From assembly GCF_035285525.1 (NCBI RefSeq), contig NZ_JAYKGW010000158.1, positions 1 through 14,855 on the forward strand: a DNA stretch of 14,855 nt, written 5' to 3'. Position 1 is the stretch's first letter. Each line of letters begins with the position of its first letter. The position numbers and the translations under genes are program-made. Shown here piece after piece: positions 8,881-14,855 of this stretch. This DNA comes from Okeania sp. (GTDB taxonomy: Bacteria; Cyanobacteriota; Cyanobacteriia; Cyanobacteriales; Microcoleaceae). Below the pieces are notes generated by a model. It was not told the origin of the DNA and did no database searches. It was given only the letters and a program-made list of their open reading frames with translations.

Positions 8881-9246
8881 ATGCAACTAGAGAATTATTT
8901 TGAATTTTTAAACCCTGATGATATTAGAATTAAAGGACATCGTATTGGTATTGATGATGTCATAGATTATTATTGGAAAGGATATACACCAGAAAAAATT
9001 CAGACTGAATTACCTACTTTAAGTTTAGAAAAAATTTATGCTACTATTACTTATTATCTACACAATAAGGATAAAATAGATGCTTATATGTCACGGTTAG
9101 CTGCATGGAGGGAACAGCGTTATCAAGAATGGTTAGCTTCTGAACCTTCACCTATGGTAAAAAGAATTAGAGAAATTAAAGCGCAGAAACAAGAAAACAA
9201 AACACAACTAAATAGTATAGATGAAAATCCGTTTTTTACTGGATGA
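8881..9246 (+). CDS. DUF433 domain protein (COG2442-type putative antitoxin)
   Basis: 121-aa ORF with SD AAGGAGA at 8867-8873. IKGHRIGIDDVIDYYWKGYTPEKIQTELPTLSLEKIYATITYYLHNKDKID matches the DUF433 helix-turn-helix-like pattern. Confidence 0.8.
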   Translation: MQLENYFEFLNPDDIRIKGHRIGIDDVIDYYWKGYTPEKIQTELPTLSLEKIYATITYYLHNKDKIDAYMSRLAAWREQRYQEWLASEPSPMVKRIREIKAQKQENKTQLNSIDENPFFTG

Positions 9247-9580
9247 AAATTTGTCGCCTCAACTAAAAATAGCTGTATTAAATATTAACTCATCCATAGA
9301 TATTTTGCGAGTAGGCGATCCAAATACCCCGCCCCTGGCCACACCAGATCCAGATATTTTAGTTTATCTAGAATCATCACAAAGACTACTGGTAACAAAT
9401 AATCGTAAAAGTATGCCTGGACATTTACAACTTCATTGGAAAAATGATCGGCATATTTGGGGTTTATTTTGGTTACGTTCAGACATAACTTTAGGGAGAT
9501 TAGCTGAAGAAATTTGGATGATTTGGGAAACTTCTGAAGCTGAAGAATGGATAGATAAAATAGATTGGATTCCTTTTTAA
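9221..9580 (+). CDS. DUF5615 family PIN-like / Mut7-C-like putative toxin (COG4634-type)
   Basis: 119-aa ORF. The N-terminus MKIRFLLDENLSPQL is the signature start of DUF5615 proteins. It overlaps the upstream DUF433 gene by 26 nt. Confidence 0.75.
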   Translation: MKIRFLLDENLSPQLKIAVLNINSSIDILRVGDPNTPPLATPDPDILVYLESSQRLLVTNNRKSMPGHLQLHWKNDRHIWGLFWLRSDITLGRLAEEIWMIWETSEAEEWIDKIDWIPF

Positions 9581-11074: not shown

Positions 11075-13222
11075 TTATGATTTTTTCCCACAACGTCGAG
11101 GTCGTTTTTGTAAGTTAATTTCCAACAAATCTGCAATATCGCACTTTAATTTATCTGCTGTTGTCTTATTCGGTTCTATATAACCAAAACCATCATTAAA
11201 AAAGTTTTTCTGATAGAAATAAATCCCTGCTATCCATTCTTTTTTACCTGCTAAATATTCATCTGCTTCTCCAGTAAACTCTTTTTCATCTCTCTCAACA
11301 TACTGAAATTTTACATCATTTTTGAGGATTTTATGAATGGCTTTAACAATTTCTAAACGCGCCTGTTCTCTTATAACTATTGTAGAATTTTGATCTAATA
11401 TTTCTTCCTCTAATTCCCGGACAACTTTTTGAATAATTCTGCTAGTAGTAGGAAATTTTTCTAGTGCTTTTTCCATTTTTACTGTGGAAATTTCATTCAA
11501 ATTAGTTGTTTCTAGATAAGTTGATTTTTCTTCCTTAGAAGGTAGAACTTCTGAAATTTTCTTTGGAAAAATATCTTTAGTATTAAATTTACTAACCTGA
11601 TGTCCTAAACCAAAAAATAAACCGTGGGAAATCATAACTAGAAAAATTATTACCACTGGTCTTCCATACTTCATAATTAATATAGTCATCTTTTCAGAAA
11701 AAACTAATTCTTTCTGAACAGTTAACCCAAAAATAGTTGTTTCATAACTAACCTTTGATTTTGATTTTGGAAACGCTCTAGAAAAAATTATTCTTGGTAC
11801 TTTTCCATTACTAATTTGGTGAAAATAAGCTGCTAACTCATAATCAGGTAATTGAGAAAATAAATCTGCCAAAGGTTGATAATAATTGCAGTTTTCTTGA
11901 GGAGATTTTAACCAAGAAATTAAGTTTTTCCAAATAGCGTTTTTATCTGTTTCTTTACCAAGAGTTTTATTGGATAAACTATTTCCGAAAGATTCTAAAT
12001 CTTCGCGAACTTGTTGTATAATTTGACTAGAATATTTTGACCATAAATTGTCTTTATTGTTGAATAGCCAACAGCAGGCAGGAATAGATATTTTTTTGCC
12101 TAATATTTGGTAGAAGGCATCATTTACTCCTCGTAAAATTAATGGTTCTAATAATTTTTGATTATTTCTCAGTTGTGATTGTAATGTCAGAGATATTTTT
12201 TGCTTTTCATTCTCTTTCTTTTCATTTCTAGTAATATTTAACCAATCTAGATATTCTGCTAAAGTTTCGGGAATTAAAATTGCTCTTAAAGTTAAGAGTC
12301 TAATCATTTGAGAATTAGTATTTCCTTGTTTGATGGCATTACTCGCTCCCAGATTATCAAATAATTTGTTTAAATCTTCTGATGTAATTTCCCCAGTCTG
12401 TAATTTTAAAACTAAATTTTCTATCCATTCTTGTTTAATTTTAGAACCACCAATTAATCCTTTAATTGCTGTTTCTATAGCAGCTTCATCTATATTTTTT
12501 GAGATATTTTTAGGGGAGTTTTCAATAATTTTTGTCTGTATTTCTGTCAGACTTGCTGCTACTTCCGCATTTGCCGGATGAATAATAATAAATTGTTCTG
12601 GTTGTTCTACAGTTTCGGCATGATAAATCCATGATGTAGGTTTTTCATTGGCTTTGGTTTCTGCCATTTTATTAATAATTTGTAAGTCTGATAATTCCGG
12701 AGGAATTATAGCAGGTAAATTTTGATTTTTCAGCCAATCTTGTAAGTCTTTGGGTAAACTTCTTCCTGGTTTTCTAGTGATTTTATGTTGGTTTGGTTTA
12801 CCAATTTCTTTAGTTTCAGATGGATTAAATATAAGGTTAGTTCTATATTGTTTCTGACTATTCATCCAATCTAATATTTGCCAGATATTATCTTTCCCAA
12901 CACAGAAAAAATAACGATAAAAAGAGGTTGAACGCCCATATTCATCTTGCCCGGAAGTAACTACAGCAACTACCGAATAATCTGGTTCTTCACTACTCAT
13001 ACTTAAAACAACTCGCCCAACCAAAGTAGGTTCTTGACTATCACGATTTTTGCCTACTTCAAAACTTTTATTGGCAATTGCTCTGGCTATAGAATGGGGA
13101 ACTTGAGGTAAGGTTAAATTCATATATTCCCCTATTTTAAATCCTTTGGAAATCCATTTACCATCGGGTAATATTTCGGGAATTATTCCTGTGCTGAACT
13201 CGTGAATTTCTATATTTTTCAT
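11075..13222 (-). CDS. Large uncharacterised protein with one predicted TM helix; candidate GTPase-associated partner (possibly GAP1-like)
   Basis: 715-aa uninterrupted ORF in very AT-rich DNA. The N-terminal ~125 aa look like a mixed alpha/beta domain (VGRVVLSMSSEEPDYSVVAVVTSGQDEYGRSTSFYRYFFCVG). The centre is long and helical. A hydrophobic stretch RPVVIIFLVMISHGLFFGLGH covers aa 521-541 (nt 11600-11662), followed by a ~170-aa charged C-terminal region. I recognise no enzymatic motif. Confidence 0.85.
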   Translation of the reverse strand: MKNIEIHEFSTGIIPEILPDGKWISKGFKIGEYMNLTLPQVPHSIARAIANKSFEVGKNRDSQEPTLVGRVVLSMSSEEPDYSVVAVVTSGQDEYGRSTSFYRYFFCVGKDNIWQILDWMNSQKQYRTNLIFNPSETKEIGKPNQHKITRKPGRSLPKDLQDWLKNQNLPAIIPPELSDLQIINKMAETKANEKPTSWIYHAETVEQPEQFIIIHPANAEVAASLTEIQTKIIENSPKNISKNIDEAAIETAIKGLIGGSKIKQEWIENLVLKLQTGEITSEDLNKLFDNLGASNAIKQGNTNSQMIRLLTLRAILIPETLAEYLDWLNITRNEKKENEKQKISLTLQSQLRNNQKLLEPLILRGVNDAFYQILGKKISIPACCWLFNNKDNLWSKYSSQIIQQVREDLESFGNSLSNKTLGKETDKNAIWKNLISWLKSPQENCNYYQPLADLFSQLPDYELAAYFHQISNGKVPRIIFSRAFPKSKSKVSYETTIFGLTVQKELVFSEKMTILIMKYGRPVVIIFLVMISHGLFFGLGHQVSKFNTKDIFPKKISEVLPSKEEKSTYLETTNLNEISTVKMEKALEKFPTTSRIIQKVVRELEEEILDQNSTIVIREQARLEIVKAIHKILKNDVKFQYVERDEKEFTGEADEYLAGKKEWIAGIYFYQKNFFNDGFGYIEPNKTTADKLKCDIADLLEINLQKRPRRCGKKS

Positions 13223-13277
13223 TTTTTAATACCAATTATTAATTCACTTACAATACTCATAAATAAAAATAATCTTT

Positions 13278-13322
13278 AGGGGTTTGGTTTCCAAATTTAT
13301 TGGGTTGGGAGACCAAACCCCG
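13278..13322. repeat. GGGGTTTGGT(T/C)TCC ... GGAGACCAAACCCC hairpin element
   Basis: A 14-bp stem with one mismatch (13279-13292 / 13308-13321), 56 nt upstream of the 715-aa gene start. The same motif family occurs at 14744-14799. Confidence 0.75.
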
Positions 13323-13359
13323 CATTTATAAATCTTACACCCTATTTAGGATTGTTATA

Positions 13360-13466
13360 TTAACACTAAAATTATTGTTTATTTCTTTATTACTTCTTCC
13401 TTGATAAATACATAAGAGGATAGAAATATTGAATATTTAAGTATAGATAGAATGACAAACATATTT
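13360..13466. repeat. Modular AT-rich repeat, copy A, in the spacer between the GTPase and the 715-aa gene
   Basis: Four modules: TTAACA(C/G)TAAAATTATT, a pyrimidine tract, ATAAATA(C/T)ATAAGAGGATAGAAATATTGAATA and AGATAGAAT..AAACATATTT. All are shared with copy B. Confidence 0.8.
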
Positions 13467-13572
13467 GACAGGGCTTTCTATTGCCCGTGAGGTACACCAG
13501 CGCTACTACCATATTTTCACCATTTACTCTGTACATCATCTGCCCTAAATATACTGTACATAAAGATAAAAA

Positions 13573-13683
13573 TTAACAGTAAAATTATTACCTATCTCTT
13601 TTTCTTTCTTCCTTCTTCCTTCTTTCTTTATAAATATATAAGAGGATAGAAATATTGAATAGATAGAATCAAAAACATATTTT
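13573..13683. repeat. Modular AT-rich repeat, copy B, plus a third copy of the first module at 13692-13715
   Basis: Same module order as copy A, with a longer pyrimidine tract (13598-13629). The 24-nt ATAAAAATTAACAGTAAAATTATT is perfectly repeated at 13566-13589 and 13692-13715. Confidence 0.8.
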
Positions 13684-13810
13684 ATATAAGCATAAAAATT
13701 AACAGTAAAATTATTTCCCATTGTCTATGCTCTATTTACTAATTAATAATTAGAAATAGTTTTCATGTTCTACTATAAATTATCCATGCTCCATGCTCCA
13801 TTATCTATTA

Positions 13811-14701
13811 TTAATTATCCATTAATTTTTTGCCTGTACAAATCCAATAAATGGGAGAAACTAAACCAAAAGGTCGCCATCTTTTCACATCTTCTAATAC
13901 AGATGCTACCCCACCACGACCACGATAAATCTGCTGAGAATTTGGTTTAAAATATTTTTTTCCAGTTACACCAAAAGCAGAAGTTGTAAAATATTCCACA
14001 TTTCCCATTCCCAAATCTTGCCAAGATTCTAATCTTTTTAAAATAGTCGGAAATCTGGCTTCTGTTAAAAATTTTGGTCTGTGTCTATTTACCCATAAAT
14101 CTGCTAATTCACATTTAGTTAATACTAAAGCAATTCGTCGTTTTTGACCTAAAATATTGTCTCCTGCTAATGCTACTAAAAGTTTATCAACTCCTTGGGA
14201 ATATTCTAAGTCTTTACGATGAGTTGTACCGTCTATCATTAACATTATTCCTGTGGCTGGAAAACAATCATTTAAGTAGTCTTGAAGTAATTGAGAATCT
14301 TTTTCCTGAAGTATATCACTAAAAAATTCTCCTGAATAATCTTTGCAACTAATATCTAAGTTAAAAACCGTATTTGATAGATTCAATTTATCTGAATTTT
14401 TCAGAACTATTCTCAAACTATAATCACGAATTTCTAATACATCATTGGCTAAACGAGTTGGTTCAATTTGTAACCCTTTTTCTATCAAATTCTTTGCCTG
14501 CTTAATTAAATATTTTCCATCTTGATTGCCTGGAGTAACTGACTCAACTTTACTATAAATATCAGCATTTGAACACCTAGCTAAAGCTGCCAGATAAGTT
14601 GTTTTTCCAGCAGCGCGATCGCCGATGACTCGTAAAATTCCCGAATAATTTTCGGCTTTTATATTCTGATTATTTTTTTGATTAAATATAGATTTAAACA
14701 T
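13811..14701 (-). CDS. Small TRAFAC-class P-loop GTPase (Ras/Arf-like core with insert), uncharacterised family
   Basis: 296-aa ORF. G1 is GDRAAGKTT (aa 27-35, nt 14597-14623). G3 is DYSG (aa 121-124). Strand plus G4 is IALVLTKCEL (aa 190-199). G5 is probably TSAF (aa 239-242). A candidate G2 Thr lies in EPTR (aa 80-83). Confidence 0.85.
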   Translation of the reverse strand: MFKSIFNQKNNQNIKAENYSGILRVIGDRAAGKTTYLAALARCSNADIYSKVESVTPGNQDGKYLIKQAKNLIEKGLQIEPTRLANDVLEIRDYSLRIVLKNSDKLNLSNTVFNLDISCKDYSGEFFSDILQEKDSQLLQDYLNDCFPATGIMLMIDGTTHRKDLEYSQGVDKLLVALAGDNILGQKRRIALVLTKCELADLWVNRHRPKFLTEARFPTILKRLESWQDLGMGNVEYFTTSAFGVTGKKYFKPNSQQIYRGRGGVASVLEDVKRWRPFGLVSPIYWICTGKKLMDN

Positions 14702-14743
14702 TTTTTCAGCATCATTTTATAATAGTCGATTATCAATAATATC

Positions 14744-14799
14744 GTAGGGGTTTGGTCTCCCAATCCCATCTAGCTAGGGTTTGGTCTCCAAACCCCTAC
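14744..14799. repeat. Two tandem GGGGTTTGGTCTCC-type hairpin units (GTAGGGGTTTGG ... CCAAACCCCTAC)
   Basis: gtaggggtttggtctcccaatccc-atctagct-agggtttggtctccaaacccctac, 43 nt upstream of the GTPase start codon. Same family as 13278-13322. Confidence 0.75.
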
Positions 14800-14806
14800 A
14801 TTTTTT

Positions 14807-14855
14807 TCACAAATTACCGATGACTCGTAAAATTCCCGAATAATTTTCGGCTTTT
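14807..14855 (-). pseudogene. Duplicated 5' fragment of the GTPase gene, cut by the window edge and ending in a premature stop before the P-loop
   Basis: 14817-14855 is 39/39 identical to 14622-14660. In the gene frame it reads KAENYSGILRVIG then N-L-stop (tga complement at 14807-14809) instead of DRAAGKT. Confidence 0.6.

Follow-up and report, generated by a model that had tools for sequence, protein, structure and literature searches.

The DNA analysed here, referred to as the window, is the whole of a 14,855-bp contig from Okeania sp. (Oscillatoriales, Microcoleaceae). Two co-oriented open reading frames lie on its minus strand, one encoding a protein of 296 residues (13811..14701), hereafter GTPase C, and one encoding a protein of 715 residues (11075..13222), hereafter BIG. 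An earlier reading of the DNA (the original prediction) had singled them out as a two-gene module of a small TRAFAC GTPase and a membrane-anchored partner, and both genes are present with these lengths and this orientation. Deposited Okeania sp. proteins (P0001 and P0119) match the two sequences exactly. The present work concerns this pair and the conserved cyanobacterial gene cluster, designated A-B-C-BIG after its first four genes, in which homologues of the pair are found.

The four GTPase motifs that had been read in GTPase C are all in place: the G1/Walker A motif GDRAAGKT at residues 27–34 (lysine at position 33; 14600..14623, minus strand; family consensus IGDRxsGKT), the G3/Walker B motif DYSGE at residues 121–125 (14327..14341, minus strand; consensus KDYxGEFF in C), the G4-like LTKCE at residues 194–198 (14108..14122, minus strand), in which glutamate replaces the canonical aspartate of NKxD, and the G5-like TSAF at residues 240–243 (13973..13984, minus strand; consensus FttSAFG). 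All four are conserved over 68 C orthologues. The protein passes the Pfam model DO-GTPase2 (PF19993; 32.5 bits versus a cut-off of 27) and falls just under the threshold of DO-GTPase1 (PF19975; 26.9 bits versus 27); the consensus of the 68 orthologues passes both models (35.3 and 33.4 bits). A word-indexed search returned at least 226 homologues, which are cyanobacterial, with PF19993 on 118 of 120 among the matches listed. DO-GTPases are TRAFAC GTPases with a conserved Walker B glutamate (Kaur et al. 2020, PMC7159879), and DYSGE, kept as DxxGE in every paralogue, brings GTPase C within that definition. Judged by its sequence, the small protein is thus a member of the TRAFAC family DO-GTPase, and the original prediction, which had pointed to the survey of Kaur et al., was correct about both the source and the GTPase family. 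Accessory features of the family are lacking: the N-terminus (MFKSIFNQKNNQNIKAENYSG) has no Cys/His pairs of the kind that form a zinc ribbon, and there is no hydrophobic segment (maximum hydropathy 0.9). N-terminal zinc ribbons (60%) and transmembrane segments (13%) are frequent in DO-GTPases, not obligatory (PMC7159879).

A complete P-loop GTPase motif set would equally be displayed by a housekeeping GTPase (Era, Der/EngA, YihA/EngB or Obg) that stood beside an unrelated membrane protein, an explanation that the original prediction had itself named for checking. However, no NCBIfam or Pfam match, and no equivalog match, to any such family was obtained for the window GTPase, and all of its homologues named by source come from cyanobacteria and are linked to BIG, some of them being plasmid-borne; we attach practically no probability to this explanation.

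For BIG, the word-indexed search returned 118 homologues, and a full profile scan covering 1.84 billion representatives matched 594 of them, 332 at E ≤ 1e-30; the best 150 of these 594 matches are all close family members, and those named by source, like all loci fetched for the neighbourhood analysis below, are cyanobacterial or uncultured. Consistent with the earlier remark that the 715-residue protein has no catalytic motif, BIG has no match in Pfam, NCBIfam or PADLOC and no catalytic family can be assigned to it. Pfam domains are found almost nowhere among its homologues, which, together with the 594 representative clusters, makes BIG a candidate new Pfam family. Variants with additional parts occur within it: P0093 (Planktothrix sp. 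FACHB-1365, 920 residues) is a natural fusion of an N-terminal PP2C_2 domain (E = 2.3e-29) to BIG, supporting a physical link of BIG to a phosphatase arm, P0242 and P0366 carry unannotated N-terminal extensions of ~229 residues, and TPR repeats are found on one representative.

The AlphaFold2 model of BIG, built on 86 sequences, has a predicted local distance difference test score (pLDDT) of 82.9, and the model of residues 1–245 alone reaches a pLDDT of 90.2 and a predicted template modelling score of 0.90. The chain begins with a beta-beta-alpha-beta-beta-beta-alpha domain (residues 1–135; 12818..13222, minus strand), which is the most conserved part of the protein and holds nearly all of the invariant residues of the family (IHEFSTGI, YMNxT, GR, D93, R97 and YRYF). 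It is followed in the model by a second small alpha/beta domain (residues 136–245; 12488..12817, minus strand) and a cytoplasmic helical region (residues 246–500; 11723..12487, minus strand). The membrane anchor that had been predicted is confirmed as a single hydrophobic segment, PVVIIFLVMISHGLFFGLG, at residues 522–540 (11603..11659, minus strand; Kyte–Doolittle 19-mer mean 2.16), which falls within a long helix (residues 508–544) in the model and aligns with a hydrophobic block across BIG homologues. A disordered linker then leads to the C-terminal helical region (residues 576–715; 11078..11497, minus strand). Selection along the protein, expressed as the ratio of nonsynonymous to synonymous substitution rates (dN/dS), follows this division, with values of 0.20–0.24 for the N-terminal domain, 0.8–1.1 (nearly neutral) for the transmembrane helix and linker, and 0.3–0.6 for the C-terminal domain. 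BIG is thus predicted to be a bitopic membrane protein. Because it lacks a signal peptide and places a 520-residue N-terminal region beside cytoplasmic GTPases, the topology is likely to be N-in, C-out, with the predicted cell-wall-binding domain in the periplasm.

That domain is a PG_binding_1-like module (residues ~653–699, WIAGIYFYQ...GFGYIEPNKTTADKLKCD), corresponding to the conserved C-terminal family motif WIxAIYxYQ...G.I...TxxxLK. The C-terminal module of the BIG family has the same helix – DGxxGxxT – helix signature as PG_binding_1 (PF01471), and matches to PF01471 in the aligned region were found in 13 homologues (3 of 32, 2 of 9 and 8 of 53 in the three sets scanned), with a best E value of 2.6e-6; the consensus of divergent BIG members scores 13.3 bits. 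BIG proteins of the Okeania clade have GFGYIEPNKTT where PG_binding_1 has DGxxGxxT.

Structural searches with the full-length BIG model and with residues 1–245 (Foldseek versus PDB and BFVD) returned nothing at E ≤ 1e-3, and sequence searches of the PDB found no relative. Two fold classes were considered as leads. TagF structures head the weak matches to the N-terminal region in two independent PDB queries (E = 0.009–0.1, template modelling score 0.18–0.26), a level shared with PAS/LOV domains and not significant. TagF belongs to the post-translational module of type VI secretion systems (TagF, Fha, the PP2C phosphatase PppA, and the kinase PpkA with its periplasmic vWA domain), and FHA, PP2C and vWA proteins also occur in the wider BIG cluster; in contrast to that module, the cluster lacks type VI secretion genes, its core has no kinase, BIG has no sequence match to the TagF family, and GTPases are no part of the secretion module. 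The succession of N-terminal domain, alpha/beta domain and helical region likewise recalls the longin–DENN layout among small-GTPase platform proteins whose alpha/beta domains are of longin/roadblock type (FLCN/DENN, MglB), and the FLCN complex (6nzd_H) is the top match of the full-length model, but its scores (E = 0.083, template modelling score 0.09, root-mean-square deviation 34 Å) amount to no real match, and PAS/LOV domains score equally. Neither assignment is adopted here.

To place the pair in its genomic neighbourhood, a family-profile scan with one genome per species (GTDB) was used; it identified 123 loci, of which 79 were fetched, and their open reading frames were typed with hidden Markov models from five reference operons. 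Upstream genes were counted in the 65 loci that had 3.2 kb or more of preceding sequence and downstream genes in the 60 that had 3 kb or more of following sequence. Across the 79 species-level loci the gene order is A-B-C-BIG-D-E-G(n)-H-I-J-K-L. C lies upstream of BIG in 60 of 65 loci, B in 62 and A, B and C together in 56, and C and BIG are separated by exactly 4 nt in 28 loci and by no more than 17 nt in 40 of 60. A scan of 72,556 plasmids gave the same picture, the same 8 cyanobacterial plasmids carrying both genes, adjacent in each case. Linkage of the two genes, which the original prediction had proposed to examine, is therefore strongly conserved, and the outcome that would have spoken against it, homologues that fail to co-occur, is countered by the same counts. 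The unit is, however, larger than the two genes first described, as three paralogous GTPases precede BIG in those 56 loci and eight or more conserved genes usually follow it. The suggestion to look within Nostocales was also too narrow: the window comes from Oscillatoriales, and the cluster is spread over Oscillatoriales, Nostocales, Chroococcales, Pleurocapsales, Spirulina and Leptolyngbya-like lineages as well as plasmids.

The three GTPases form separate orthologous groups, all DO-GTPase-like, of ~250 (A), ~275 (B) and ~300 (C) residues, the window protein being the third of them; B and C are ~30% identical, and the B consensus scores 33.6 bits in the DO-GTPase comparison above. The DxxGE motif is kept in 68 C, 68 B and 60 A sequences (RDYPGE in B and DtpGE in A), and G4 is a canonical NKAD in A, lTKCE in C and MSKCE in B. 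From these motifs, A, B and C may differ in nucleotide handling or base specificity, or may be partly non-canonical. Downstream, D (~360 residues, without a recognizable domain) and E (~430 residues, vWA) then follow BIG in 48 of 60 loci. In many loci D-E is succeeded by one to five ARC6-like-IMS proteins, a Beta-lactamase2-family serine hydrolase and two further vWA proteins and, further on, by a 127-residue protein and a zinc-ribbon–FHA protein; a PP2C phosphatase then follows in both of the clusters whose far end was inspected (Planktothrix and A. variabilis). Database names of the cluster proteins are hypothetical or ‘Double-GTPase domain-containing’.

The cluster is carried on plasmids of Fremyella/Tolypothrix PCC 7601 and, as a 15-gene cluster at 13494–31265, on plasmid B of Anabaena (Trichormus) variabilis ATCC 29413 (NC_007411, locus L088), where it makes up about half of the 35.8 kb. 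The rest of plasmid B encodes DnaB, ParA/ParB, XisF and an IS1, and a second copy of the cluster is indicated on plasmid A of the same strain (Ava_A0014). A phage origin was considered and set aside, as BIG gave no tblastn match in 50,697 phage records. Copy number varies: three BIG loci are present in one metagenome-assembled genome, in some genomes two to four BIG paralogues, of which some exceed 1,000 residues, stand in tandem (L061, L079, L083/L087, L029 and L032), and the ARC6-like-IMS genes form arrays of one to five (e.g., L055, L040 and L057). Trichodesmium erythraeum IMS101 has two copies (L026 and L028, at 1.29 Mb and 3.08 Mb). In one of them, which belongs to the Okeania type, BIG has 726 residues, B-C-BIG is detected without A, and D-E lie several kilobases off; in the other, which is compact, D-E come directly after two tandem BIG genes (876 and 891 residues). 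Diversification of BIG and ARC6-IMS copy number in tandem is a pattern typical of sensing or conflict components.

These data bear on whether the cluster might instead be a non-conflict envelope or morphogenesis machine, acting in peptidoglycan remodelling, division or cell–cell junctions, whose GTPases regulate the periplasmic peptidoglycan-binding, ARC6-IMS and serine-hydrolase parts. Such a role would account for the PG_binding_1-like domain of BIG, for the ARC6-like-IMS proteins and beta-lactamase-family serine hydrolase of the cluster, and for a gene order conserved over many cyanobacterial orders. The zinc-ribbon–FHA protein, with an architecture that we take to resemble that of the filament-integrity protein FraH, was counted on the same side. 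What fits poorly with a core envelope function is the carriage on small as well as large plasmids, the presence of several copies in some genomes (two loci in T. erythraeum, three in the one metagenome-assembled genome), the tandem paralogue arrays, the dN/dS of 0.4–0.5 for BIG, the retention of only A-B-C-BIG as adjacent genes in the Okeania clade, and the repeats and toxin–antitoxin-like pair that surround the genes in the window. We consider an envelope machine of this type rather unlikely. Plasmid carriage, multiple copies per genome, the tandem BIG and ARC6-IMS arrays and the high dN/dS make an accessory role of the conflict type appear more plausible to us than a core function in the envelope.

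The original prediction had further compared the N-terminal domain of BIG with GTPase-associated protein 1 (GAP1). Kaur et al. defined GAP1 by a GAP1-N1 or GAP1-N2 domain together with GAP1-M and GAP1-C and by a GASH or FNIII companion, predicted that DO-GTPase systems are conflict systems (a prediction only), and reported DO-GTPase/GAP1 systems to be ‘nearly completely absent in cyanobacteria’ (PMC7159879), so that the expectation of GAP1 systems in this phylum runs counter to the very survey that had been cited. The comparison of domains also failed. None of the Pfam families GAP1-N1, N2, M and C matched the window BIG or 32 homologues at E ≤ 1, or 9 long family members at E ≤ 0.01; none was among the 25 top-ranked families listed for 53 divergent members; and none matched two BIG-family consensus sequences at E ≤ 10, with the proviso that HMMER filters may hide very weak GAP1 matches. 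Companion genes of the GASH (N1) or FNIII (N2) type were likewise absent from the neighbourhoods in T. erythraeum, Okeania, Dapis, Planktothrix, Nostoc, Microcystis and A. variabilis.

In its overall organization, the cluster nevertheless parallels the GAP1-N2 systems. In those systems the partner has a C-terminal transmembrane helix and an extracytoplasmic domain, peptidoglycan-binding domains occur, and one theme includes PP2C and vWA proteins, while paralogous DO-GTPase copies share an operon in 38% of DO-GTPase systems (PMC7159879). The cyanobacterial cluster similarly combines paralogous TRAFAC GTPases bearing the Walker B glutamate with a large conserved partner directly downstream, a membrane-proximal location with a C-terminal transmembrane helix and a predicted extracytoplasmic domain on BIG, nearby PG_binding_1-like, PP2C and vWA domains, and components that vary in copy number. 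It differs from GAP1 systems in having three GTPases rather than one or two, none with an N-terminal zinc ribbon, in a partner devoid of detectable GAP1-N, M or C domains, in the ARC6-IMS genes that hold the position of the variable array in place of GASH or FNIII, in its phylum, and in downstream genes that are rather constant and not hypervariable effectors. By analogy, we regard the cluster as working like GAP1-N2-type systems without being a demonstrable member of them.

A closer relationship would be implied if BIG were an N2-like GAP1 that has drifted beyond Pfam detection, the cluster then being the cyanobacterial branch of an ancestral DO-GTPase–GAP1 pair. BIG does occupy the gene position of GAP1, downstream of a DO-GTPase, its cytoplasmic part is modelled as three globular units, and its C-terminal transmembrane helix and predicted extracytoplasmic domain have counterparts in GAP1-N2 proteins, as its PP2C and vWA neighbours have in one GAP1-N2 theme. 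Yet 94 members and two consensus sequences gave no GAP1 match even at E values of up to 1–10, GASH and FNIII companions are absent, the systems are nearly missing from cyanobacteria according to PMC7159879, and three GTPases stand where one or two are expected. Divergent descent from GAP1 thus appears unlikely, and because of the missing matches in the 94 homologues and both consensus sequences BIG is not filed as a GAP1 protein.

Our favoured interpretation, which we hold to be probable, is that the window pair, GTPase C and its membrane partner BIG, belongs to a cluster that is confined to cyanobacteria and has an A-B-C-BIG core, proposed to form a trans-envelope GTPase switch. In the mechanism envisaged, the conserved N-terminal domains of BIG would serve in the cytoplasm as the platform on which A, B and C build a hetero-oligomeric switch driven by GTP; BIG would span the inner membrane once and hold its PG_binding_1-like domain against the cell wall. 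BIG could thereby link the nucleotide state of the GTPases to that of the periplasm or peptidoglycan, with signals running in one direction or the other. The output would in most genomes pass to the vWA proteins, the ARC6-IMS-domain proteins, the class-A beta-lactamase-like serine hydrolase, the zinc-ribbon–FHA protein and the PP2C phosphatase, and the whole may constitute a threshold-setting, phospho-regulated trans-envelope apparatus, a functional counterpart of the membrane-proximal ‘GAP1-N2-type’ DO-GTPase systems.

Several observations weigh against this interpretation. BIG has no detectable GAP1 homology and no convincing structural relative (its best Foldseek match has E = 8.9e-3 and a template modelling score of 0.18–0.26), and for these reasons the proposed role of BIG as a GTPase platform is drawn from gene order and from nothing else. 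The window BIG itself gives no PG_binding_1 match at E ≤ 1, and the replacement of NKxD by [ST]KCE in B and C means that guanine specificity is not certain. No cluster protein matches a defence model in PADLOC-DB 2.0, the only scores being weak ones for the window GTPase (E = 0.005, PDC-M49A, in the P-loop region) and for B (two at E ~0.003), with nothing for BIG or for 8 of the 9 other cluster proteins scanned; together with the constant downstream gene set, this does not favour a conflict role. In the Okeania lineage, a repeat-filled stretch of 588 bp parts C from BIG, and BIG is not adjoined by the D-to-L genes, which leaves co-transcription and completeness of the system in this Okeania putative. 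Finally, a literature search found no functional study of the cyanobacterial cluster, in agreement with the earlier statement that such modules have no experimentally defined function; besides Kaur et al. 2020 it found no paper on DO-GTPase systems, although one alignment-methods paper mentions PF19975.

Extending the favoured interpretation, we suggest more tentatively, and with somewhat less than balanced confidence, that the cluster represents a third class of DO-GTPase system, specific to cyanobacteria and overlooked in the defining survey. Three GTPases docked on BIG, a fold without a PDB relative, would then be the switch of a plasmid-mobile apparatus of ~15 genes that spans the envelope and senses the cell wall or periplasm, and the apparatus could be an immunity or abortive-infection device of filamentous and colonial cyanobacteria. 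DO-GTPase systems have so far been a purely computational prediction reported as nearly absent from cyanobacteria, and a widespread cyanobacterial relative is shown here; the GTPase family itself is known, and what is new is the three-GTPase layout and a non-GAP1 partner family without a convincing PDB match. Its compactness on plasmid B of A. variabilis ATCC 29413, and its presence on the PCC 7601 plasmids, make the cluster a compact experimental target. In the window itself, what had been described as a ‘two-gene module’ is the final part of a longer operon that the contig boundary truncates.

Within Okeania, Dapis and Trichodesmium the order A-B-C-BIG is maintained with spacers of 230–1769 nt, and D-E, where present, are found some kilobases further downstream. 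The 14,855-bp window lacks all of A, B, D and E; for A and B the reason is technical, because the contig ends 154 bp upstream of C. As had been anticipated, the module very probably continues past the window end, given the presence of A, B and C together in 56 of 65 loci, with the two GTPase genes A and B cut off. A and B were not recovered from another contig of the same assembly: the O. hirsuta B protein used as a query in the word-indexed search returned no Okeania or Dapis entry, not even itself, and an exact look-up of P0001 found only a 2.3-kb Logan contig.

The setting of the pair in the window also raises the question of whether it is a decaying remnant of the larger cluster that no longer works. 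Decay would be in keeping with a spacer swollen to 588 bp by repeats and duplications, with the absence of D-to-L genes from the window and with an odd 39-nt duplication of the 5′ end of the GTPase gene at the contig edge. Against this, both open reading frames are full length relative to orthologues (99–100% coverage), all motifs are intact, dN/dS versus nine relatives is below 1 for both (0.20–0.30 for C and 0.40–0.48 for BIG), and Okeania, Dapis and Trichodesmium all retain A-B-C-BIG in this form, with long spacers. Because they are full length, with intact motifs and dN/dS below 1, both window genes look functional as far as their sequences tell, and we judge decay to be very improbable.

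The spacer between C and BIG (13223..13810) is repeat-rich (repeats D2, D3, D5, D7 and I12), and tight coupling of the two genes is not seen in this lineage. Within the spacer lie a ~220-bp tandem duplication (13359–13470 versus 13572–13690, blocks 83–92% identical, without an Rfam match) and a palindromic repeat pair. A second such pair lies in the region upstream of C, which runs to the contig end (14702..14855). The MITE-like repeats of the original prediction are these two GGGGTTTGGTCTCC(C)AA-type palindromic hairpin pairs (13277–13321 and 14744–14807), which stand 45–105 nt 5′ of the start codons of both genes, one of the GGGGTTTGGTCTCC hairpins scoring as terminator-like. They could be insertions resembling miniature inverted-repeat transposable elements (MITEs) or repetitive extragenic palindromes, or transcript-boundary elements that uncouple both genes in this clade. 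The last 39 nt of the contig (14817–14855) are an exact direct copy of codons ~15–27 of the GTPase gene (14622–14660), offset by 195 nt, with the palindromic repeat pair between the two copies. Positions 14727–14855 are not common to relatives, and the copy either reflects misassembly where the contig ends or arose by duplication or insertion in this lineage.

No RNA family was found in the window by an Rfam scan, and a scan for promoter and terminator consensus sequences, with 30 found versus 22 expected, is uninformative in AT-rich DNA. The impression that the two genes are more AT-rich than housekeeping genes was borne out only marginally, as their GC contents (0.305 and 0.316) are below that of the window (0.342) but inside the range of the other genes (0.30–0.405). 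Of the accessory-type neighbours named earlier, the Uma2 fragment was not found in the window, whereas the toxin–antitoxin pair was recovered as a DUF433/DUF5615 toxin–antitoxin-like pair at 8881–9580. The two genes overlap (8881–9246 and 9221–9580), are putatively of toxin–antitoxin type and lie ~1.5 kb from the module, with an alpha/beta-hydrolase gene on the opposite strand in between.

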